Positions 1 to 12,045 of a DNA stretch of 57,773 nt are shown here, one piece after another (the first letter of the stretch is position 1; each line of letters opens with the position of its first letter). The notes under the pieces were generated by a model. It saw nothing but the letters and a program-made list of their open reading frames with translations. It was not told the origin of the DNA and made no database searches. Origin of the DNA: Clostridia bacterium (GTDB lineage Bacteria > Bacillota > Clostridia > Christensenellales > Aristaeellaceae). Where the stretch lies: the NCBI GenBank assembly GCA_017436605.1, contig JAFSCW010000125.1:1-57773 (forward strand). Direction: 5' to 3'. Both the position numbers and the translations under genes were made by a program.

Positions 1-2
1 AG

Positions 3-119
3 ACCTATATCCCAACAGAATTCATTGGGTTGTATGAAAAATATGGCTATTGCTATGTAAAAGACATAGTAAACTACGGAAATGGAATTGACCGTTTGTA
101 TGTCAGAGAAATAAAATAG
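3..119 (+). CDS. 3' fragment of a GNAT-like N-acetyltransferase gene (5' end outside the window)
   Basis: The frame is open from the window edge to TAG at 117-119. The translation ...FIGLYEKYGYCYVKDIVNYGNGIDRLYVREIK resembles a GNAT C-terminus (YEKxGF-like). Confidence 0.4.
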   Translation, partial: TYIPTEFIGLYEKYGYCYVKDIVNYGNGIDRLYVREIK

Positions 120-129
120 ACTATTCATT

Positions 130-256
130 AAATTCCAATTTGCACATCTCAGTCCCCACAGTCTTGTATTCGGGGATGATATAGAGATAGTTCGGTAGCG
201 CGCTACATTCGCTATTCACGAGGTCTTAGGTATCGAATTCCTATATGCTCCACCAC
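130..256 (+). repeat. E1: conserved 3'-module copy 1, with a tRNA(Ala)-like acceptor/T-arm mimic
   Basis: The 66-nt core 191-256 differs from 1425-1490 at one position. It ends ...AGGTCTTAGGTATCGAATTCCTATATGCTCCACCAC. GGGG 172-175 can pair with CTCC 248-251. The module starts 11 nt after the upstream stop codon. Confidence 0.85.
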
Positions 257-257
257 G

Positions 258-285
258 AAGACCTTCTCGGAAGAGAAGGTCTTTT
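258..285 (+). terminator. Intrinsic terminator following E1
   Basis: AAGACCTTCTC-GGAA-GAGAAGGTCTT followed by TTTGC. The stem shows compensatory changes relative to the E2 terminator. Confidence 0.85.
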
Positions 286-368
286 GCATTTATGTACAGA
301 ATGAAACGTAAAAAGCAGTCTGATTGCACAAAAGAATCATCAGAGCAAGAAAGTGAACAACTTCACGT

Positions 369-416
369 GGGGCATTAGCACGGTTGGTAGCAGCGCATTC
401 GCATTGCTTGGAGCAC
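369..416 (+). repeat. E1b: diverged or truncated copy of the module that resembles a tRNA(Ala) 5' half
   Basis: GGGGCATTAGCACGGTTGGTAGCAGCGCATTCGCATTGC shares GGGG, GGTAGC, GCGC and ATTCGC blocks with E1-E3. It has no T-arm or CCA part. Confidence 0.55.
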
Positions 417-427
417 AGTTAACCAGG

Positions 428-462
428 GGCAGAGAATTGGGCAAAGAGTTCTCTGCCTTTTC
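428..462 (+). terminator. Intrinsic terminator following E1b
   Basis: GGCAGAGAA-12 nt-TTCTCTGCC followed by TTTTC. Confidence 0.7.
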
Positions 463-547
463 TATTCATGATTGATGATAGGTTTTGTTCGCGCCATCAT
501 AATACGAAAAATCAGAATTCATCGAAAGGATAGCAACAGCGAGTTGC

Positions 548-576
548 TTGTTAATCTGATAGTCTCACATTATAAT
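548..576 (+). promoter_or_regulatory. Sigma-70-type promoter for the XRE/Zn-ribbon gene
   Basis: TTGTTA (548-553), 17-nt spacer, TATAAT (571-576). It lies about 20 nt upstream of the GAGGTGA ribosome-binding site. Confidence 0.6.
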
Positions 577-596
577 AATCGTGAGGTGATGATTTT

Positions 597-1361
597 ATGG
601 AAACAAAAGATGTTATTCTGAGACTAAGAACAGACAAAGGCTTATCTCAAGATGAACTGGCTGAGAAAGTATATGTTACGCGTCAAGCCGTATCCCGTTG
701 GGAAAATGGAGAAACCACGCCAAACACCGAAACACTAAAACTGCTTTCCAAACTGTTCAATGTTTCTATCAATACACTTCTCGGTTCTCCACGACAGCTG
801 ATCTGCCAATGCTGTGGTATGCCATTGGAGGATACGAATATCAGCAAAGGAACGGATGGTTTTTTTAATGAAGAATACTGTAAATGGTGTTATGCAGATG
901 GAGAATACATGTATCATAACATGGATGACTTAATTGACGTCTGCATAAGCCATATGGCAAATGAACATTTCACACCCGAACAGGTACGCTTGCATATGAA
1001 GGACATGCTCCCGAAATTGAACTATTGGAAAAACTATACGAATTTGGCAGGAGCAGAAAAGTTTGAAGAGTTCAAAAGACAGCTTATAAATGAAATAAAC
1101 GCCCTGCACGTAGAAGGTATGCCGAGAGTAGAAAAACTGAATGCACTTGTAGGAGGATACATCAATCTTGAATATCGGCTGCCCAATGGAAAATGTGTGA
1201 AGTTCTTAAATGACGAAGCAACCTACTTGGGAAACCAGCTGGAATGTGAATTCGGCGGAGACAGATGTTTTGGGATTGCCGCCAACATGGATTTTATCAT
1301 GGTATCTACCTATGAGAAAAATGGCGAAAACCCAGAACTTGTCATTTACAAAAAAAGATAA
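597..1361 (+). CDS. XRE-family HTH regulator fused to a Cys4 zinc-ribbon and a C-terminal domain of unknown function
   Basis: N-terminus LSQDELAEKVYVTRQAVSRWENGETTPNTETLKLLSKLFNVSINTLL is an HTH_3 signature. It is followed by CQCCG...CKWC. RBS GAGGTGA lies 7 nt before the ATG. Confidence 0.85.
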   Translation: METKDVILRLRTDKGLSQDELAEKVYVTRQAVSRWENGETTPNTETLKLLSKLFNVSINTLLGSPRQLICQCCGMPLEDTNISKGTDGFFNEEYCKWCYADGEYMYHNMDDLIDVCISHMANEHFTPEQVRLHMKDMLPKLNYWKNYTNLAGAEKFEEFKRQLINEINALHVEGMPRVEKLNALVGGYINLEYRLPNGKCVKFLNDEATYLGNQLECEFGGDRCFGIAANMDFIMVSTYEKNGENPELVIYKKR

Positions 1362-1371
1362 ACTAACCTCG

Positions 1372-1490
1372 ATTTGCACATTACAGTATCCATGTCTCGC
1401 GTTTGGGGGCTGAGTTACGCATGCTTCGGTAGCGCGCTACATTCGCTATTCACGAGGTCGTAGGTATCGAATTCCTATATGCTCCACCAC
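1372..1490 (+). repeat. E2: conserved 3'-module copy 2, the best tRNA(Ala)-like copy
   Basis: GGGGC 1406-1410 pairs with GCTCC 1481-1485 (G3:U70), followed by A1486 and CCA 1487-1489. Contains the palindrome GTAGCGCGCTAC at 1429-1440. Confidence 0.85.
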
Positions 1491-1491
1491 C

Positions 1492-1519
1492 AAACCCTTC
1501 TCTTAAGAGAAGGGTTTTT
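1492..1519 (+). terminator. Intrinsic terminator following E2
   Basis: AAACCCTTCTC-TTAA-GAGAAGGGTTT followed by TTG. Homology to the E1 unit continues to 1535 (TTTTGCTTCATATACAGAAT). Confidence 0.85.
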
Positions 1520-1606
1520 GCTTCATATACAGAATATTGTATGAGCACGGAAAACTTGAATTTGTCGAACAGATAAAAATATATAGATTAAAGCAATTAA
1601 CGGAGT

Positions 1607-1972
1607 ATGAATATGAGATATAATTGGATTGATGATTATTTGTTATCAAAAAAAGGGGTAACAAAAAATCTTGAGAACTGGAATTGGATTAGATATCAAA
1701 TTATGGGCAAAATGTTTGCAGCAGTGTGTTGCGATGAGGCGGGAGTGCCTTATTGCATTACCTTAAAACTTGAACCAAACGAAGGCGCTTTTTTGCGGGA
1801 ACAGTATAAGGATATTTATCCCGGTCACTACATGAATAAAGTGCATTGGAATTCTATCAATCCAGATGGGGAAGTGCCAGATGATTTGTTAAAAGACTTG
1901 CTGGACAAATCGTATGGACTAATACTGGCAGGTTTTAGCAAAAAGAAACAAATGGAGATACTGGCAGAATAA
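1607..1972 (+). CDS. MmcQ/YjbR-family DNA-binding protein
   Basis: The 121-aa product contains ...ITLKLEPNEGAFLREQYKDIYPGHYMNKVHWNSI..., which is typical of the YjbR/MmcQ fold family. The start could be the second ATG at 1613. Confidence 0.8.
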   Translation: MNMRYNWIDDYLLSKKGVTKNLENWNWIRYQIMGKMFAAVCCDEAGVPYCITLKLEPNEGAFLREQYKDIYPGHYMNKVHWNSINPDGEVPDDLLKDLLDKSYGLILAGFSKKKQMEILAE

Positions 1973-1986
1973 CGGAGGGTAAAAGT

Positions 1987-2250
1987 ATGGCGAATTATAG
2001 TGTTTGTGGCATTGATTGTGATACATGTAAATTCAAAACAGAGCAAAATTGTAAAGGTTGCAAGGAAATAAAGGGTAATGTGTTTTGGGGCGAATGCGAA
2101 TTGTACAAGTGTAACGAAGAAAAGAAGCAGGAACATTGTGGCAAGTGTCCGGAATTTCCTTGTGACAAATTGAAAGAATGGGCTTCATCTGAAAATCCAG
2201 AAAGAATTGAGAACCTAAAAAGAATATTACAAATTCCAATTTGCAGATAG
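1987..2250 (+). CDS. DUF3795-like cysteine-rich small protein
   Basis: 87 aa with CGIDCDTC...CKGC...C..C...CGKCPEFPCDKL. RBS GGAGGG lies 7 nt upstream. The last 7 codons overlap the start of E3. Confidence 0.75.
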   Translation: MANYSVCGIDCDTCKFKTEQNCKGCKEIKGNVFWGECELYKCNEEKKQEHCGKCPEFPCDKLKEWASSENPERIENLKRILQIPICR

Positions 2251-2355
2251 CAGTTACTATTCACTTGCGTTGTGGCTGAGTTATGCACGCTTCGGCAGCG
2301 CGCTGCATTCGCTATTCACGAGGTCGTAGGTATCGAATTCATATATGCTCCACCT
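2231..2355 (+). repeat. E3: conserved 3'-module copy 3, the most diverged
   Basis: Core 2291-2356 differs from E2 at 4 positions. Two of these are the compensatory pair that turns GTAGCGCGCTAC into GCAGCGCGCTGC. It ends CCACCTC, so the CCA is lost. Confidence 0.85.
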
Positions 2356-2357
2356 CG

Positions 2358-2396
2358 TCACCACACGGTATTCATATAAACCTGTGGTGATTTTTT
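2358..2396 (+). terminator. Intrinsic terminator following E3
   Basis: TCACCACACGG-12 nt-CCTGTGGTGA followed by TTTTTT. Confidence 0.8.
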
Positions 2397-2403
2397 ATTG
2401 CCG

Positions 2404-2450
2404 AAAAAAGCCCGGAAGCCTTGCAGACCACAGAGGTTTCCGGGCTTTTT
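2404..2450. terminator. GC-rich bidirectional terminator at the AT-rich/GC-rich junction
   Basis: AAAAAAGCCCGGAA-20 nt-TTCCGGGCTTTTT, with an A-run on one side and a T-run on the other. Confidence 0.7.
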
Positions 2451-5729: not shown

Positions 5730-5767
5730 CGGCTTCTCTCCCGCCGGGGCTGAGAAGCCGTTTTTTC
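5730..5767 (+). terminator. Intrinsic terminator
   Basis: CGGCTTCTC-12 nt-GAGAAGCCG followed by TTTTTTT. Confidence 0.8.
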
Positions 5768-5853
5768 ATCCAAACCTGACGTATTGGCGTTCGGCTCCTT
5801 TTACGGATGGATGTTCTTTTCTGTATTTCCTGTTAGTATTGCGCCGCGCCGCA

Positions 5854-5883
5854 TTGCAGTTTTCAAAGTGCATATGATATAAT
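5854..5883 (+). promoter_or_regulatory. Promoter of LRR paralog 1
   Basis: TTGCAG, 18-nt spacer, TGATATAAT. The -10 context CATATGATATAAT is echoed upstream of paralog 2. Confidence 0.55.
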
Positions 5884-5943
5884 ATTGGAAAACCAAGGAA
5901 TCTGCCAGCTTTTTGCTGCATGTCCAGAAAAGGAAGTGTCCAT

Positions 5944-8700
5944 ATGTTCCGCAAAGCTCTGGCGCTGATGCTGTGCCTGTGCATGGCATGCTCATTCGCC
6001 CTTGCCGAAGAGCTTCCGGTGGAAACGGCTGTTGAAGCCGTCGCCGAAGAAGCCCCCATCGAAGAAGCTCCTGCAGAAGAAGCTCCTGCCGAAGAGGCTC
6101 CTGTCGAAGAAGCTCCTGTCGAGGAGGCTCCCGTCGAGGAGGCTCCCGTCGAGGAGGCTCCCGTCGAGGAAGCTCCTGCCGAGGAAGCTCCTGTCGAGGA
6201 GGCTCCCGTCGAGGAGGCTCCCGTCGAAGAGGCTCCCGTCGAGGAGGCTCCTGTCGAGGAGGCTCCCGTCGAGGAGGCTCCCGCTGAGGAGCTGCCCGTG
6301 ATCGATGAGCTTCCCGCCATCGAAGAAATGCCTGAAGAAGACGAATCTTCCGACGAAATCCCGGCTGAGGAAGACGCCGTGACGGAGGAAGACGCCGTAC
6401 TCCCCGAGGAAGATCTGCTGCCGGCGATCGATGAAGAGGTCATCGCCGAGGAGGTTATCGTCGGTGAAGCCGAGCTTCCCGTTTACAGCGCGACCAGCGG
6501 CAAATGGAACGGCCTGTCCTGGACATATGCCGACAAGGTTCTGACCATCACCGGCTCCGGCGATATGGAGACCGGCGATACCGATTATCCGTGGGCGGAT
6601 CTGGCAGCGTCTGTCAAGGAAATCCGGATCGGCGATTATGTGACCGGTATCGGTCGGTACGCATTCCAGAATTTCACGTATCTGAAAACGCTGGTTCTCG
6701 GTTCCCGCGTAACCCAGATCTACGATTACGCCTTCTACGGATGTGAGAGTCTCAGCGAGGTAAACTTCGCCTCCGCCGCCAAGCTGGAAATCATCGGCAG
6801 TGCCGCATTTTATAACTGCAACAATCTGGAGAACATCGTGTTCCCTTCCAGTCTGAAGATGCTCCACGCGAACGCCTTTGCCGAATGCGACTATCTGACC
6901 TCCGTAACGCTGCCCGATAATCTCGAATACATCGGCTACAGCGTATTCATGAACTGCGGCTGGCTGCGCGGCCATGTGACCATTCCTGCGACCGTCACGA
7001 AGTTCTATGATACCGCATTCTACGGCACCAATCTCTCCAGCGTCACCATCAACGCAAACTGCGCAATTCCCAAGCAGGCCTTCTATCTCTGCGACTCGCT
7101 GACTACCGTGACCTTCGGCAGCGGCGTAACCGGAATCGGCGAATCCGCATTTGAAAACTGTACGGCGCTGACAGACGTCAACATCCCCGGCACCGTCAAA
7201 ACCATCGGCCAAAGCGCTTTTGAAGGCTGCACCTCCATGGCCAACCTGACCCTGAACGAGGGTCTGAATGAGATCGGCTACGAGGCCTTTTATCTTTCCG
7301 GCATCACCTCGCTCACGCTGCCCAGCACGGTTACCTACATCAACGATAAAGCCTTCGTTTCCTGCAGGTCGCTCAAGACGGTCGATATGAGCAAGCTCGT
7401 CCAGTGCACGCTGCGTCCGAGCCTCTTTGTCGGCTGCACCGCGCTGACCACCGCCAACCTTGGCGCCGCCTGCATCACGGGCATCCCGTCGTATTGCTTC
7501 GAATCCTGCAAGTCCCTGACCGACATCACCTGGCCGCCGAACCTGACCATCATCAGCAACAACGCATTCCAGGCCTGCCCGGGACCTGCCTCCATCGTGC
7601 TGCCCTCCTCCGTGACAACGATTTCTGCCTACGCTTTCAGCGGATGCAGCAATGTGAAGAGCGTCACGCTCGGCAAGAATATCGAAAGCCTCGGTTACGG
7701 CGCCTTCAACTGCTCTGCGCTGGAAGAGCTCACCATCTACAGCGCTGACGCAGAAATGAACTACATGTGCCTCACCGGCTCCAAGGCGCTGACGATCTAC
7801 GGCTATGCCGGCTCCACGGCCGATGTATACGCCTCGGAGAACGGCATCAACTTCGTCGAGCTTTCCGGCTCCATGGCCGCGCCCGACGCCCCCGTCCTCT
7901 CCCGCATTCAGAACACGACCTCCGGTATCCGCATCACCTGGAAGCCTGTCGCCGGCGCGACGCATTACGCCGTCCTGCGCACGACGAGCGAAACCGGAAC
8001 GGGCTATCTCACGATCAAGGATTCCGTGACCTCGACCAGCTTCGACGACAAGAACGTCCTCACCGGCAAAACCTATCGCTACGTCGTTATGGCCTACAAC
8101 GGCGCGATCGATTCCGCGTATTCCAATGAGCTGTCCCTCGTCCATGTCGCCTCGATCGCCCTGCCCACCTGCACCAACAGCCTCGCCGGCATCAAGCTGA
8201 GCTGGAAGCTGAGCGAAAATGCGACCGGCTATGCGCTCTTCCGCAAGAACATTACCGACGGCGAAAACTGGAAGCGCATCAAGACCGTATCCGCCAGCAC
8301 GAGCTCGTATACCGACTCCGTCGTGTGCAACAGCCAGGGCAAGGCATATCAGTATCAGGTCCGCGCGCTCTACGGTACAGAGCTCGCTGCCTCCCGCTCC
8401 GCCGGAACCGGCATCCTGCGCATCAAGGGGCCGACGCTGCGCAGCGCCGAGGTCGCGGGCAAGAACGCCATCAAATGTACATGGTCCACGTCCAAGACCG
8501 TCGAGGGCTACCAGATCCGGTTCTATGCAGACGCTTCCTATCAGCGTATGTTCCAGATCAATACCGCCTCGACCTTCAAAAAGACCTTCACCGGCCTGCG
8601 CTCCGGCGTGACGTACAAGGTTCAGGTTCGTTCCTTCCAGTCCTACGAGGGTGTGAACCACTATTCCGCCTGGTCCTCTGCGATCAACCTCGAGCTGTAA
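5944..8700 (+). CDS. Secreted BspA-type leucine-rich-repeat protein with an acidic (EEAPV)n spacer and three C-terminal Fn3-like domains (paralog 1)
   Basis: Signal peptide MFRKALALMLCLCMACSFALA. Many repeats of about 23 aa of the form IP.SVT.IG..AF..C..L. The C-terminal modules contain motifs such as ...G.T.Y.V.A.N. RBS GGAAG precedes ATG 5944, and this start is shared with paralog 2. Confidence 0.9.
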   Translation: MFRKALALMLCLCMACSFALAEELPVETAVEAVAEEAPIEEAPAEEAPAEEAPVEEAPVEEAPVEEAPVEEAPVEEAPAEEAPVEEAPVEEAPVEEAPVEEAPVEEAPVEEAPAEELPVIDELPAIEEMPEEDESSDEIPAEEDAVTEEDAVLPEEDLLPAIDEEVIAEEVIVGEAELPVYSATSGKWNGLSWTYADKVLTITGSGDMETGDTDYPWADLAASVKEIRIGDYVTGIGRYAFQNFTYLKTLVLGSRVTQIYDYAFYGCESLSEVNFASAAKLEIIGSAAFYNCNNLENIVFPSSLKMLHANAFAECDYLTSVTLPDNLEYIGYSVFMNCGWLRGHVTIPATVTKFYDTAFYGTNLSSVTINANCAIPKQAFYLCDSLTTVTFGSGVTGIGESAFENCTALTDVNIPGTVKTIGQSAFEGCTSMANLTLNEGLNEIGYEAFYLSGITSLTLPSTVTYINDKAFVSCRSLKTVDMSKLVQCTLRPSLFVGCTALTTANLGAACITGIPSYCFESCKSLTDITWPPNLTIISNNAFQACPGPASIVLPSSVTTISAYAFSGCSNVKSVTLGKNIESLGYGAFNCSALEELTIYSADAEMNYMCLTGSKALTIYGYAGSTADVYASENGINFVELSGSMAAPDAPVLSRIQNTTSGIRITWKPVAGATHYAVLRTTSETGTGYLTIKDSVTSTSFDDKNVLTGKTYRYVVMAYNGAIDSAYSNELSLVHVASIALPTCTNSLAGIKLSWKLSENATGYALFRKNITDGENWKRIKTVSASTSSYTDSVVCNSQGKAYQYQVRALYGTELAASRSAGTGILRIKGPTLRSAEVAGKNAIKCTWSTSKTVEGYQIRFYADASYQRMFQINTASTFKKTFTGLRSGVTYKVQVRSFQSYEGVNHYSAWSSAINLEL
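6046..6300 (+). repeat. Seventeen in-frame 15-bp tandem repeats encoding EEAP(V/A/I)
   Basis: GAAGAGGCTCCCGTC-type units are directly visible in the sequence. Confidence 0.95.
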
Positions 8701-8712
8701 TCACGATGCTCT

Positions 8713-8742
8713 GCCCCGCTTCCCTGTGAAGCGGGGCTTTTT
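8713..8742 (+). terminator. Intrinsic terminator
   Basis: GCCCCGCTTC-CCTGT-GAAGCGGGGC followed by TTTTT. The stem is the same as at 12072-12096. Confidence 0.85.
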
Positions 8743-8774
8743 GCATAAATGTAATCGGAAACAGATTCTCTTCA

Positions 8775-8803
8775 TTGCCTCAAAACAAACCATATGCTAT
8801 AAT
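8775..8803 (+). promoter_or_regulatory. Promoter of LRR paralog 2
   Basis: TTGCCT, 17-nt spacer ending TGC, TATAAT. Confidence 0.6.
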
Positions 8804-8868
8804 TAAACCATCACTTGGAAACTGTACAGCTTTATAACTGTATGATCCAAAGAAAAGGAAGGGTCAAT

Positions 8869-11800
8869 ATGTTCCGCAAAGCGCTTTCGCTGATGCTGTG
8901 CCTGTGCATGCTGCTTACCTCCATGCCGGCATATTCCATCTCCCTTGCCGAGGAACTTACGGGCGATCCGGCTGTCGAGGCCGTCGCCGAGGAAGCTTCC
9001 GTCGAAGAGGAGCCTGTTAAGGAAGAGCCCGTCGAGGAAGAGCCCGTCGAAGAAGAGCCCGTCGAAGAAGAGCCCGTCGACGAAGAACCCATCGAGGAGG
9101 AGCTCGTCGAAGAGGAGCCCGTTAACGAGGCGCCTGTCGAAGAAGAGCCTGTCGAAGAGGAGCCTGTCGAAGAAGAACCTGTCGAAGAAGAACCTGTCGA
9201 AGAGAAGCCTGTCGAAGAGGAGCCTGTCGAAGGGGAGCCTGTCGAAGAGGAGCCTGTCGAAGAGGAGCCTGTCGAAGAGGACCCTGTCGAAGAGGAGCCT
9301 GTCGAAGAGGAGCCTGTCGAAGGGGAGCCTGTCGAAGAGGAGCCTGTCGAAGAGGACCCTGTCGAAGAGGAGCCTGTCGAGGAGGACCCTGTTAACGAGG
9401 AGCCTACTGAAGAAGTCCCAGTCGAAGAAGATCTGCCTGTGATCGAGGAGCTCCCCGATGACGAAGCGACCGAAGGTTCCACAGAGCAGCCCGGCGAGAC
9501 TACCGATGAAGACACGCCCGAAATCACTGACGAAACCGAAAACATAGAAGAAGTGACCCCCGAAACGGAGGAAGAGCTGCTGCCCGAGATCGACGAAGAG
9601 CTGGTCATCGGCGAAGGCGAACTCGTCTATTACGACGCTGCCAATGGCACGTGGGGCGATCACACCTGGACGCTCAGCGGCAGCACGCTGACAATCTCCG
9701 GTTCCGGTGCGCTCAAGAGCGCCTACTCCGGCAACTACCCCTGGTCGGCCTACGAAGGCCAGGTCACCAAGCTCGTGATCGGCAACTACGTCACCAGCAT
9801 CCCGCAGTATGCCTTTGAGGATTTCGCTGTCCTGACCACCCTGACGCTCGGCACCGGATTGACCAGCATCGGCAACTACGCCTTCGACAGCTGTACCAAT
9901 CTGCCGTCCGTGACCGTCCCCAAGAGCGTCACCGCGATCAACAAATACGCCTTCAACAACTGCAGCAACCTCAGCAGCGTTTCCTTTGCCTCCGGCTCCA
10001 AGCTCGCGAGCATCGGCAACTACGCTTTCTACGGCTGCCGCAACATCATCGCGCTCAGCTTCCCGGATGCGCTGACCACCATCGGCGAGGGCAGCTTCCA
10101 GAACTGCACCAACCTGATCTCCGTGACCTTCGGTTCCAAGATCAATTCGATCGGCTACGATGCCTTCAACAACTGCGACGCGCTCTCCGCGCTCGATTTC
10201 CCCTCCAGCCTTCGCACGATCAACAGCTACGCTTTCTATGACTGCGATAATCTGCTCTCCGTCGTCCTGCCCTATGGCCTTAAGACGATCGGCAGCTATG
10301 CCTTCTGCAACTGCGAAAAGCTGACCGGCACGGTAAAGATTCCCGGCTCCGTGACCTCCTGGGGCAATTATTCCTTCCAGAATACCGGCGTCACGACCGC
10401 GAACATCTACGCCGCCTGCAAGATTCCGAATTACGCCTTCAACAATTGCACTTCGCTGGCAACGCTGGTCATCAGCGGCAACGTCACCGGCGTCGGCGAA
10501 GGCGCATTCCAGTACAACACCCGCCTGAAGAAGGTCAATCTGCCTGCGACCGTCACCTCTGTCGGTTATGGTGCATTCAGAGATTGTACCGCGCTGGCGA
10601 CGCTGACCTGCTCCACCGGCCTTGTTTCCATCGATGGCTACGCGTTCCATAATACGCCCATCACCTCGCTGAAGCTGCCCAGCACCGTCACCAGCCTGGG
10701 TACCTATTGTTTCAGCAACTGTACTGCACTGAAGACCGTTACCCTGAGCAGCGGCCTGACCTCCATTCCCAGCAACGCTTTTCTGGACTGCACCGCGCTG
10801 ACCACCGTCACGCTGGGCAACAACATCAACAGCATCGGCAACGCCGCGTTCTACAACTGCAGCGCCCTGAGCAGCATCAACTGGCCGACGAACCTCAATT
10901 CCATCGGCCAGAACGCGTTCTACAACTGCGACGGCCTGGTGTCGATCACCTTCCCCAGCGCACTCAATACGATCAAGTACGGCGCTTTCCGTTACTGCGA
11001 CAACCTCAAGAGCGTCACGCTCGCGCAGAATGTCAATACCATCGAAGGCTATGCGTTTGCCAACTGCCCGAAGCTGACCTCCTTCAAGAACTACAGCGCC
11101 AACACCACCTACAACAACTATGCCTTCTCCAGCTCCACCGGCGTTACGCTCTACGGCTTCTCGGGCTCCACGACCGAAACGCACGCTTCCAGCAAGGGAC
11201 TTGCCTTCTCTCCCATCACCACGCTGGAAACCCCGACGAACAAGAAGATCCAGAACGTCGTCACCGGCATCCGCCTCTATTGGAACTACGTCCCCGGCGC
11301 AACCTATTATTCCGTATGGCGTTCGACCTCCTCCAGCGGCAGCTATACCAAGATCGCCGATTACGTCACGTCGCTGCTCTATGTCGATACGACAGTGTCC
11401 AGCGTAAGAACCTATTTCTACAAGGTCAAGGCGCACAACGCGCAGGCCAGCTCCGGCTATTCCGCCGTGCAGTCCCAGACCTACGTCGGCACGCCCGACA
11501 TCACTTCCCGCACCAATAAAGCCGCCGGCATCAGTATCGGCTGGAATCAGATTTCCGGCGCGACCGGCTATGCAGTCTACCGCAAGCCCTATTCCGGGGA
11601 CTATGCCTGGCAGCGTGTGGCAACGATTTCCGGCGGCAGCACCCTGACCTGGACCGACACCAGCGTCAAGAGCGAAAACGGCACGATCTACAAGTATACC
11701 GTCCGCGGTCTGTACGGTTCCGTCCTCTCGGGCAGCCGTCCTGCCGGCCGCACCATGGTTCGCCTGCAGAGCCTGACGCTCAAGAGCGTCGCCAAGTCGG

Positions 11801-12045
11801 GCACGACCTCCGTCAAGTGTACCTGGACCCCCACCACCGCTGCAGACGGCTATCAGGTGCGCTTTATGGCAGACGGCGTGGCAACCAAAACCTTCAAGGT
11901 AACCAGCAACTCGATCTCCTCCAAATCCTTCGGCGGCCTGACGGCGGGTAAGCGCTATAAGATTCAGGTTCGCTCCTTCAAGAAGGTCGACGGCGTTGGC
12001 ACATTCAATTCCGCCTGGTCCTCCGCACTGTATCTCGATCTGTAA
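8869..12045 (+). CDS. Secreted BspA-type LRR protein with an (EEEPV)n spacer and three Fn3-like domains (paralog 2)
   Basis: Same architecture as 5944-8700. The first 45 nt or so of the CDS and the RBS context are nearly identical to paralog 1, while the body is much more diverged. Confidence 0.9.
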   Translation: MFRKALSLMLCLCMLLTSMPAYSISLAEELTGDPAVEAVAEEASVEEEPVKEEPVEEEPVEEEPVEEEPVDEEPIEEELVEEEPVNEAPVEEEPVEEEPVEEEPVEEEPVEEKPVEEEPVEGEPVEEEPVEEEPVEEDPVEEEPVEEEPVEGEPVEEEPVEEDPVEEEPVEEDPVNEEPTEEVPVEEDLPVIEELPDDEATEGSTEQPGETTDEDTPEITDETENIEEVTPETEEELLPEIDEELVIGEGELVYYDAANGTWGDHTWTLSGSTLTISGSGALKSAYSGNYPWSAYEGQVTKLVIGNYVTSIPQYAFEDFAVLTTLTLGTGLTSIGNYAFDSCTNLPSVTVPKSVTAINKYAFNNCSNLSSVSFASGSKLASIGNYAFYGCRNIIALSFPDALTTIGEGSFQNCTNLISVTFGSKINSIGYDAFNNCDALSALDFPSSLRTINSYAFYDCDNLLSVVLPYGLKTIGSYAFCNCEKLTGTVKIPGSVTSWGNYSFQNTGVTTANIYAACKIPNYAFNNCTSLATLVISGNVTGVGEGAFQYNTRLKKVNLPATVTSVGYGAFRDCTALATLTCSTGLVSIDGYAFHNTPITSLKLPSTVTSLGTYCFSNCTALKTVTLSSGLTSIPSNAFLDCTALTTVTLGNNINSIGNAAFYNCSALSSINWPTNLNSIGQNAFYNCDGLVSITFPSALNTIKYGAFRYCDNLKSVTLAQNVNTIEGYAFANCPKLTSFKNYSANTTYNNYAFSSSTGVTLYGFSGSTTETHASSKGLAFSPITTLETPTNKKIQNVVTGIRLYWNYVPGATYYSVWRSTSSSGSYTKIADYVTSLLYVDTTVSSVRTYFYKVKAHNAQASSGYSAVQSQTYVGTPDITSRTNKAAGISIGWNQISGATGYAVYRKPYSGDYAWQRVATISGGSTLTWTDTSVKSENGTIYKYTVRGLYGSVLSGSRPAGRTMVRLQSLTLKSVAKSGTTSVKCTWTPTTAADGYQVRFMADGVATKTFKVTSNSISSKSFGGLTAGKRYKIQVRSFKKVDGVGTFNSAWSSALYLDL
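8989..9423 (+). repeat. About 29 in-frame 15-bp tandem repeats encoding (E/D/K/G)E(E/D)PV-type units
   Basis: GAAGAGGAGCCTGTC-type units with higher-order repetition, for example 9226-9300 against 9301-9360. Confidence 0.95.

Follow-up and report, generated by a model that had tools for sequence, protein, structure and literature searches.

The contig JAFSCW010000125.1 of an Aristaeellaceae genome (Clostridia bacterium, assembly GCA_017436605.1), whose 57,773 nucleotides are here called the window, opens with an AT-rich block (positions 121 to 2400) of small genes that are followed by copies of one repeated module and an intrinsic terminator. The three main copies of this module, E1, E2 and E3, are degenerate full-length copies of tRNA-Ala(CGC). 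The block probably arose by tandem accretion of integrase-less mini-elements at the attachment (att) site that large serine recombinases (LSRs) use within tRNA-Ala, with subsequent gene conversion. A preliminary description of the window had compared the layout to integron cassettes or to serial att duplication. The second comparison was essentially right: the repeat derives from tRNA-Ala(CGC), and the intact tRNA stands at the E1 position in a strain variant.

Strain variants were retrieved with the window's own proteins. These and the other loci fetched from other genomes, metagenome-assembled genomes (MAGs), metagenome assemblies and phage contigs are numbered L001-L183. In the variant L023 an intact, promoter-driven tRNA-Ala(CGC) lies exactly where the window has E1 and is followed by the window-type terminator, the small module E1b, the XRE gene, E2, the YjbR and DUF3795 genes and E3, with no element alpha, the unit that carries the GNAT gene in the window. 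Compared with this tRNA, E1-E3 have in common a 5-nt insertion in the D-loop region, a destroyed 3' strand of the anticodon stem and changed bases in the T-stem. The end of the core still resembles a tRNA, with a T-arm-like hairpin, a 7-nt acceptor strand and ACCA. In E1, a type A arm (GGGGATGATATAGAGATAGTTC) is followed by the shared block GGTAGCGCGCTACATTCGC, and the 3' part, which is degenerate, closes with CCACCA; E3 carries the palindrome variant GCAGCG|CGCTGC and ends in CCACCT.

None of the three copies has the cloverleaf of a functional tRNA or tmRNA. ARAGORN (0 genes) and Rfam gave no tRNA or tmRNA in the window, with matches at E <= 10 included, and as single strands E1, E2 and E3 fold no better than shuffled sequences (z = +0.3, +0.8 and 0.0). 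The 3' end of a tmRNA, suggested by ...GCTCCACCA and GGGGCTGA, was rejected given these negative searches and the intact tRNA-Ala(CGC) gene of L023. The window's variant of the degenerate core is rare, being found only in ruminant-gut assemblies of ENA and in one NCBI MAG. Its 20-mer CATTCGCTATTCACGAGGTC had 0 exact matches in GTDB species genomes, IMG/VR and JGI metagenomes, and the core had no blastn match among plasmids or phages.

Most of what had been read from the window itself was reproduced. The GC fraction is 0.395 for positions 1-2400 and 0.600 for the remaining window. A 33-mer of the core occurs three times (208-240, 1442-1474 and 2308-2340; 0 expected from 100 shuffles) and belongs to the longest repeat family in the window, 119 nt at 169-287, 1403-1521 and 2269-2387 with identities of 100%, 86% and 67%. 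On recounting, the 66-nt cores differ as claimed, at one position between E1 and E2 and at four between E3 and E2. The mosaic motifs also recur where they were reported: AAATTCCAATTTGCA, common to E1 and E3, at 130 and 2231 only, and GGCTGAGTTAYGCAYGC, common to E2 and E3, at 1408 and 2274 only. Homology was said to resume after the terminators, and the motif in question is exact in E2 and has one additional T in E1. A hairpin and T-run lie within 1-3 nt of each copy, and 0 of 200 shuffles fold as stably; the terminators after E1, E1b, E2 and E3 reach about -16 to -20 kcal/mol (z -4.1 to -5.5, 200 shuffles). A strict consensus terminator scan missed these hairpins because their T-runs are only 4-6 long. 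Pfam recovered the proposed gene content, HTH_3 with Zn_ribbon_2, YjbR and DUF3795.

Two readings of the block had to be changed. E1b (369-424), taken for a diverged copy of the repeated module, is a distinct pseudo-tRNA: its 5' end is the true one, GGGGCATTAGCAC, its T-arm is deleted, and it is part of the mini-element backbone; homologous modules are present in L087, L036 and L114, and window positions 258-519 are 75% identical to the L087 backbone. E3 does overlap the last codons of the DUF3795 gene as described, but the overlap arises by loss of a stop codon in this strain. The stop is TAA in L001 and L021 and TTA in the window, where 7 extra codons are read through the R site, one of the two cargo-boundary sites treated below. 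In L001, L021 and L024 the protein ends after 80 aa.

To see how general the arrangement is, we scanned with a 25-mer from the anticodon arm of the tRNA, which gave at least 120 loci from many Clostridia MAGs. At most of the loci listed the tRNA-Ala(CGC) is intact and single, and the terminators behind it are host ones of various kinds. About 14 of the at least 120 listed have an intact tRNA followed by one to three pseudo copies at spacings of 0.4-2.1 kb, and at these loci the DNA between the copies is AT-rich cargo within GC-rich chromosomes. Cassettes in the other Clostridia MAGs measure 0.7-2 kb. Their pseudo copies are built from an element-type 5' arm joined at GGTAGCGCGCTAC to a tRNA 3' part, and the arms are of type A, identical to the E1 arm of the window, or type B, like those of E2 and E3. 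Some copies are hybrids. Copy 2 of L087 joins arm A to the exact 3' half of the true tRNA, and copy 3 of L076 has the host-specific 3' half. The element-type terminator (CCTTCTC-N4-GAGAAGG, then TTTTGCAT) follows the intact tRNA at 8 array loci and at 0 of the 96 others listed. A compact backbone, with the terminator directly after the tRNA, then the E1b module, a promoter and the arm, recurs in at least 8 species with differing cargo.

The arrays have the features of islands at a tRNA gene save one. An intact tRNA stands at the left end of the arrays in L032, L036, L055, L076, L087, L114, L118 and L140, and the displaced tRNA repeat is represented by E1-E3 in the window and by the exact 3' halves of the hybrid copies elsewhere; an integrase gene is found neither in the window nor in the mini-arrays. 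An empty site is also available, in L099, a relative of L087. The two L087 flanks, separated there by 1.36 kb, match L099 at 92.5% and 87.9% identity and meet in L099 with a 66-nt overlap. The host-type terminator stands after the last copy of an array, as it does behind the intact tRNA where the site is empty (L099, L112 and L075). For the species of the window itself, no empty site turned up.

Two remnants bear on the position of the break. The terminal copy of L036 stops directly after CATTCGC. In L114 (5590-5665, minus strand) a 5' fragment of tRNA-Ala, GGGGCATTAGCACAGTTGGTAG|AACGAGG, lies 55 nt 5' of the intact tRNA and ends in GGTAG|, where unrelated sequence takes over; it looks like an attL-type remnant with the break after G22. 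Judged from these two sequences, the break would fall at or directly 3' of the palindrome GTAGCG|CGCTAC. A comparable arrangement was seen in L025 (5798-6445), where two tandem 290-nt GC-rich units lie directly 5' of an intact tRNA-Pro(TGG). Each opens with the first 18 nt of tRNA-Pro (CGGGTGTGGCGCAGTTGG). The break there, AGTTGG|TAGCGCG, falls in the D-loop exactly where that of the tRNA-Ala arrays does, and a recombinase of the same kind may therefore also target tRNA-Pro.

That the genes between copies might differ between strains had been proposed as a check, and they do. At least five array configurations occur within the window's species. Upstream of the same E1 there is an alpha/beta hydrolase gene in L002, an unrelated open reading frame (ORF) in L003 and the GNAT gene in the window; the hydrolase gene is preceded by the same promoter and L module, L being the left boundary site, as in L087. 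Between the same E2 and E3, YjbR/DUF3795 is exchanged for a 199-aa cyclase in L004 and L016, and in L002-L004 the cyclase gene replaces this cargo from the exact point of the L site (1552-1564). The XRE gene is 99.9-100% identical between strains, and the adjacent host transporter gene 98.1-99.5%. Because the XRE gene is the more similar of the two, this comparison suggests that the array is of more recent date than the chromosome around it, or moves more readily. For joint movement of the cargo and the backbone to the left of L, one or two linked single-nucleotide polymorphisms were found, too few to decide the matter.

Other variation was noted in the same strains. The XRE/Zn-ribbon gene is called as 150 aa (window-equivalent 908-1360) instead of 254 aa in the otherwise nearly identical contigs L011, L012, L018 and L019, which suggests a disrupting mutation in some strains. 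In L003 (2340-2803) the cyclase cassette is broken right after GTCACAATA, before its R site, by unrelated sequence with GC-rich, structured-looking segments and a partial minus-strand ORF; it matches no Rfam family at threshold and may be another mobile element. A GNAT homologue on a long contig, L029, proved to be an ordinary chromosomal gene without L or R sites.

The copies themselves appear to have exchanged sequence. E1 of L001 is a mosaic, pseudo-type as far as TCGAAT and true tRNA-type beyond, and has a deletion of about 50 nt. The paired palindrome change from T..A to C..G seen in E3 is also present in E2 of L022 and L023, and the degenerate T-arm variant occurs in another species as well (L055 copy 2). 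These comparisons are consistent with the near-identical degenerate 3' parts having arisen by gene conversion together with elements that carry a degenerate 3' part of their own. The terminator stem after E2 has a compensatory change between strains, C-G to A-T.

The preliminary description saw no recombinase, and indeed none was detected in the 57-kb window, nor in the mini-arrays, by tyrosine and serine motif scans or by tblastn with four LSRs. A crude motif scan for tyrosine integrases over all loci and the window gave spurious matches only, and a small serine recombinase beside the tRNA in L051 belongs to an unrelated GC-rich island without L or R sites. In relatives, LSR genes end 45-100 nt 5' of the same junction in at least 8 loci (L074, L086, L106, L120 and L126, with cut copies in L047, L105 and L113). 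The encoded proteins have 548-564 aa with Resolvase, Recombinase and Zn_ribbon_recom domains and form four subtypes of 61-77% mutual identity. The window's arm B, GGGGCTGAGTTACGCATGCTTCGGTA, matches the arm beside the L074 LSR, GGGGTGTAGTTACGACGCTTCGTTA, at 19 of 25 positions, and such arms lie next to the LSR in L074, L047 and L105. The distance from GGGG to the centre of the palindrome is 28-29 nt in all arms and 24 nt in the tRNA. In serine integrases the motif for the zinc-ribbon domain lies about 5 bp further out in attP than in attB half-sites. Such attP geometry may explain why the arms look like the 5' part of a tRNA with an insertion. LSR att sites are short, with imperfect dyad symmetry about a central dinucleotide and with longer half-sites in attP than in attB; the palindrome at the junction here is GTAGCG|CGCTAC. 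Because an LSR-island junction directly adjoins a mini-element backbone in L113, LSR islands and mini-elements do stack at one site.

We therefore favor the following model for the window. The AT-rich block would be the distal part of a tandem array of mini-elements whose anchor, a chromosomal tRNA-Ala(CGC), would lie immediately beyond the left edge of the window. Each element would consist of one or two cargo genes on a conserved backbone comprising a tRNA 3' part with a terminator, in some cases another pseudo-tRNA that is terminated separately, a promoter and a 5' arm of about 29 nt that mimics the 5' part of the tRNA with 4-5 extra bases. Integration would proceed by site-specific recombination at GTAGCG|CGCTAC, between the 3' strand of the D-stem and the 5' strand of the anticodon stem, and each event would leave an arm joined to a tRNA 3' copy at the right end of the element, giving E1, E2 and E3. 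The recombinase would act in trans and would most likely be an LSR of the family that adjoins the same junction in relatives, and the integrated copies would then be homogenized by gene conversion. Element alpha, whose cargo is the GNAT gene, would close with the E1 arm. Element beta would run from the E1 3' part through its terminator, E1b and the E1b terminator, a promoter, a degenerate L site, the XRE gene and a degenerate R site to the E2 arm, and element gamma from the E2 3' part through its terminator, L, YjbR/DUF3795 and R to the E3 arm.

The cargo has boundaries of its own. Swaps between identical flanks start and stop exactly at two 13-mers, L (AAACTTGAATTTG) and R (AAATTCCAATTTG). 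A -10 box lies exactly 3 nt before the (C/T)TCGAC of L, a Shine-Dalgarno sequence follows L after 0-6 nt in most cases, and R lies 5-25 nt 3' of the stop codon. The first clue to these sites was L025, which has a homologous GNAT cassette near tRNA-Pro with an R that is a perfect palindrome, TTCGACAAAT-GCCA-ATTTGTCGAA. The full site is the palindrome CTCGACAAAY-N4-ATTTGTCGAG. A count over 1.32 Mb, in loci partly picked by L, gave 46 exact copies of L and 40 of R, where 0.02 would be expected. In L114 two cassettes share one backbone, divided only by R and then directly the next Shine-Dalgarno sequence. The 13-mers gave only unrelated primer matches in the literature, and the inter-cassette module had no blastn match to plasmids or phages.

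A metagenome scan with the L module gave promoter-L-cargo-R-terminator units outside the tRNA-Ala arrays (L158, L161-163 and L168, all without the tRNA-Ala block). Three upstream platforms each occur with three different cargos after L, and L and R together bracket more than 20 unrelated genes. In L158 and L163, which have the complete arms, L agrees with the reverse complement of R at about 17 of 19 positions. The promoter is outside these repeats yet always accompanies the insertion. One unit, in the IMG/VR phage contig L169 (1889-2650), carries a chloramphenicol-acetyltransferase-like gene between two tail genes. The same gap in the relatives L170-L183 is a hotspot for morons, being empty (23-39 nt) in L178, L179 and L182 and otherwise filled by various single-gene units; L180 has the platform and L site of the chloramphenicol-acetyltransferase-like unit with different cargo, and L170 and L180 have a common platform with different cargo. 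In the otherwise AT-rich cassette array of L168, an insert of about 200 nt (90-330, minus strand; between R 1534 and L 1750) is GC-rich with several hairpins (GCCTCCCCTGTGTAAGGGGAGGTGGG...) and may be a small repeat element. Several tRNA-Ala arrays (L072, L076, L118, L140) lack L and R, so these sites are not required for stacking at the tRNA.

Possible roles for L and R are exchange between heterospecific sites, an RNA duplex between 5' and 3' untranslated regions (UTRs), or transposon-like terminal repeats. We rank site-specific exchange first because boundaries so exact, in more than 20 genes that have nothing else in common, call for capture by a precise mechanism. Two other interpretations were dropped. 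L and R are not arm-type sites at the edges of attP, as R lies between two ORFs inside the L114 element and units exist without the tRNA block. Nor do the isolated units form a compact miniature inverted-repeat transposable element (MITE) of the order R...terminator...promoter...L, since L163 and L161 have no other end within reach. The units do share terminal inverted repeats (L and R) with MITEs; no target-site duplication was seen at the phage insertion and no transposase was identified.

Several observations weigh against LSR-driven accretion at the tRNA. No recombinase gene was found in the window or in any mini-array, and the connection to LSRs consists of a shared site and similar arms. 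The central GC dinucleotide of the palindrome is itself palindromic and would leave an LSR without polarity. Simple serial integration predicts the true tRNA 3' half in E1 and the host's original half in E3, and both hold the degenerate type. As that type is also found in L055 copy 2, conversion, block transfer or deletion may have had a part in the history; the host-type 3' half in the first and last copies of L076 again requires conversion. Finally, no contig reached the left end of the array to which the window belongs: walking leftward from the XRE, YjbR and CoA-transferase proteins, every contig ended in or before the GNAT gene. Homologous recombination or slippage among duplicated tRNA pseudogenes, with no site-specific step, might be thought to have built and shuffled the array. 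The repeats (85-175 nt, 86-98% identical) would suffice as substrates, and the mosaic E1 of L001 and the concerted changes show that homologous exchange does occur, but this fails to account for how foreign AT-rich DNA bearing a conserved element-type arm first entered one and the same position of the tRNA across many species, or for the LSR genes at the junction, and as a full explanation it is very improbable. We give equally little credence to the E modules being functional tRNA-like mRNA 3' ends, processed by RNase P/Z or stabilizing, that were selected and duplicated. The lack of a terminator between cargo and E means that the mRNA should read through E to the terminator, the T-arm-like hairpin is retained with different stem bases (GTAGG/CCTAT against ACCGG/CCGGT), and one palindrome change is symmetric. 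However, folding at the level of shuffles, the negative ARAGORN and Rfam searches and the destroyed anticodon stem speak otherwise, and the copies in other species are simple hybrids that contain the true 3' half of the tRNA, a pattern accounted for by recombination but not by a role as RNA.

Decay is a more serious rival, if still an improbable one. Larger LSR or integrase islands might have integrated serially and then been deleted to remnants, so that the size of the units would be meaningless. This is the textbook route by which cis-mobilizable elements (CIMEs) form (PMC5704250). LSR islands use the same site, some units have degenerate sites (window 1364-1376 and 507-519), and E1 of L001 has its deletion. 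Against this, tblastn with four LSRs found no remnant in the window or the mini-arrays, and the same compact backbone is present in at least 8 species; independent decay would not halt at the same boundaries. The rival we regard as least unlikely, though still doubtful, places the primary mobility at L and R, with promoterless cargo exchanged by a site-specific recombinase between heterospecific sites and the pseudo-tRNAs serving only as scaffold. The swaps bounded exactly by L and R, the L114 cassettes parted by R alone, the three platforms with three cargos each, the units without a tRNA-Ala block, near tRNA-Pro and in phage morons, the palindromic full site and the site counts far above expectation in loci partly picked by L all favor it. 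No recombinase is linked to the sites in any locus examined, however, and the arrays that lack them show that arrays can form without them. L and R have unlike spacers, a difference that classical tyrosine recombination between the two would not accept; a -10 box placed exactly 3 nt before L suits a transcript leader or operator just as well; and the complementarity of L and R (about 17/19) also allows a UTR duplex or transposon-like terminal repeats. A wider proposal, which we offer as speculation, is that L and R constitute a natural cassette-exchange system of gut Firmicutes and their phages, in which some recombinase would move promoterless genes, a chloramphenicol-acetyltransferase-like gene among them, from one conserved promoter and terminator platform to another, and for which the tRNA-Ala mini-elements would be one serine-integrase-aided vehicle between species; capture would then have two levels, in the manner of integrons. 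For the window, accretion of mini-elements at the tRNA-Ala att site followed by gene conversion is the reading we retain.

The features of the block are collected in Table 1. The GC-rich hairpin at its right-hand end probably belongs to the host. Further along the window, at 5920-12000, two very large LRR_5/Extensin-like surface-protein genes lie between CoA-transferase and aldo-keto reductase genes. A long repeat of the EEAPV type is present in one of the two, and a Ser/Gly/Ala-rich ORF of the other strand (5766-6443) mirrors it. These genes are present in the window, L011, L012 and L014 and missing from L013, L015 and L016, a strain-level insertion or deletion of about 6 kb.

Table 1. Features of the AT-rich block and its right-hand edge (window positions 1-2450).
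Feature	Position	Strand	Basis or remarks
GNAT acetyltransferase, 3' end of small gene	3-119	+	Translation; homologues with Acetyltransf_1/7; cargo of the mini-element nearest the tRNA; truncated by the window edge
R-type 13-mer (AAATTCCAATTTG)	130-142	+	Right edge of GNAT cargo; inter-strain homology starts exactly here
E1, full-length pseudo-tRNA-Ala(CGC)	172-255	+	65/76 tRNA positions identical
Element-type intrinsic terminator, CCTTCTC-N4-GAGAAGG then TTTTGC	257-288	+	-18.9 kcal/mol, z = -5.1
E1b, second pseudo-tRNA (369-424), with terminator (425-460)	369-460	+	-20 kcal/mol, z = -4.1
Degenerate L-type site (AAAATCAGAATT)	507-519	+	Alignment to L087 backbone; alone not significant
Promoter-like TTGTTA-17-TATAAT, 5' of XRE gene	548-576	+	10/12 matches; consensus match only
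XRE-family HTH and Zn_ribbon_2 cargo gene, 254 aa	597-1361	+	Pfam
Degenerate R-type site (TAACCTCGATTTG)	1364-1376	+	Repeat-family comparison
E2, pseudo-tRNA-Ala with type B 5' arm (GGGGCTGAGTTACGCATGCTTC)	1406-1489	+	65/76 tRNA positions identical
Intrinsic terminator 3' of E2	1492-1522	+	-16.0 kcal/mol, z = -5.5
L-type 13-mer (AAACTTGAATTTG)	1552-1564	+	Left edge of YjbR/DUF3795 cargo
Cargo pair, YjbR-family gene (1613-1972) and DUF3795 gene (1987-2250)	1613-2250	+	Pfam
R-type 13-mer	2231-2243	+	Right edge of YjbR/DUF3795 cargo
E3, terminal pseudo-tRNA-Ala, type B arm	2272-2355	+	61/76 tRNA positions identical
Terminator 3' of E3, end of AT-rich block	2357-2397	+	-15.7 kcal/mol, z = -4.9; composition shift
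Second terminator hairpin, GC-rich, 5' of SNF-family transporter gene	2405-2450	+	-29.8 kcal/mol, z = -6.0; inverted repeat

The preliminary description knew of no element so organized, which was too strong, as tandem accretion of integrase-less elements is known (PMC5704250; 10.1101/2020.12.28.424599; 10.1101/336396). Among the closest are CIMEs, described as decay products of integrative and conjugative or integrative and mobilizable elements that accrete in tandem, as with ICESt1/ICESt3 of Streptococcus thermophilus (PMC5704250). Like the arrays here, they are integrase-less units with flanking att copies, stacked at the end of a target gene and dependent on a recombinase from another element; attL and attR are kept, and genes for integration and transfer are absent. 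CIMEs differ in spanning several kb, in using the 3' ends of protein genes or tRNAs and in relying on tyrosine integrases, whereas the units described here are 0.9-1.4 kb with one or two genes, a conserved terminator and promoter backbone and a mid-tRNA site common to LSRs. With no mobility-gene remnants found by tblastn, the conserved compact backbone argues against random decay. Plain duplication of a tRNA or tmRNA 3' end around integrase-bearing islands had been named as the case that would make the repeat ordinary. The tRNA origin agrees with it, but the cassettes are integrase-less, mostly single-gene and 0.9-1.2 kb, the units in the window hold no integrase remnant, and the copies are full-length pseudo-tRNAs rather than 3' fragments.

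Composite islands of the staphylococcal cassette chromosome (SCC) with ccr-less pseudo-SCC also stack in tandem at one site with direct repeats of the target (10.1101/336396; PMC6243372). Their recombinases CcrAB/CcrC are large serine recombinases that act in trans, and some SCC cassettes have no recombinase genes; the target is the 3' end of rlmH and not a tRNA, and the units are 3-60 kb. The tycheposons of Prochlorococcus integrate serially at tRNAs, push older elements inward, leave partial tRNAs as separators and carry niche cargo (10.1101/2020.12.28.424599). They differ from the arrays here in having their own integrase (mostly tyrosine, few LSR), replication genes and a size of 10-20 kb, and in these arrays it is pseudo-tRNAs of full length, their 5' arm derived from the element, that act as separators. 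In elements that encode an LSR, the domain-bearing gene lies next to the junction, as in L074, L086, L106, L120 and L126; it is absent in the window.

As a classification the integron comparison fails; it survives as a functional analogy for the 13-nt L and R sites. Like integron cassettes, the L/R units are short, mostly promoterless genes behind a promoter-proximal L, each cassette ends in an imperfect palindrome (R), and the first-cassette position varies between strains. Unlike them, they have sites of 13-24 nt, and most units have a promoter and terminator of their own. No intI (crude motif scan of the window and loci), no attI and no attC with R''/L''/L'/R' boxes was found. Phage morons are independent promoter-gene-terminator units between phage genes (Hendrix and colleagues). 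The L/R units resemble them in being single-gene units, AT-rich against their surroundings, with their own promoter and terminator; morons are not known to have defined boundary sites, whereas conserved 13-mers bracket the cargo of L/R units.

The repeat that first drew attention to the block thus has an ordinary origin; what is new is the miniature, apparently purpose-built backbone and the cargo boundaries L and R. When genomes are scanned, arrays with a conserved 3' module plus terminator should first be compared with tRNA genes in strain variants. Integration hotspots at tRNAs are usually discussed for islands of 10-100 kb with their own integrase. In the present case this principle applies to single genes: a backbone of about 300 nt restores or mimics the tRNA, terminates transcription and supplies a promoter and an attachment arm. 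Such units stack up, and strains of a single gut species that occur together have different sets of them. Should a serine integrase act on them in trans, they would be the smallest integrative 'satellites' of which we are aware and would offer a cheap route of gene flux to GC-rich Clostridia, with visibly foreign cargo (40% against 60% GC). The recurrence of L and R in phage morons and chromosomal cassettes makes the precise capture of morons and single-gene cassettes directly testable. To our knowledge, integrons are essentially absent from the phylum of these gut Firmicutes, and the L and R sites mark a path that resistance genes might take.

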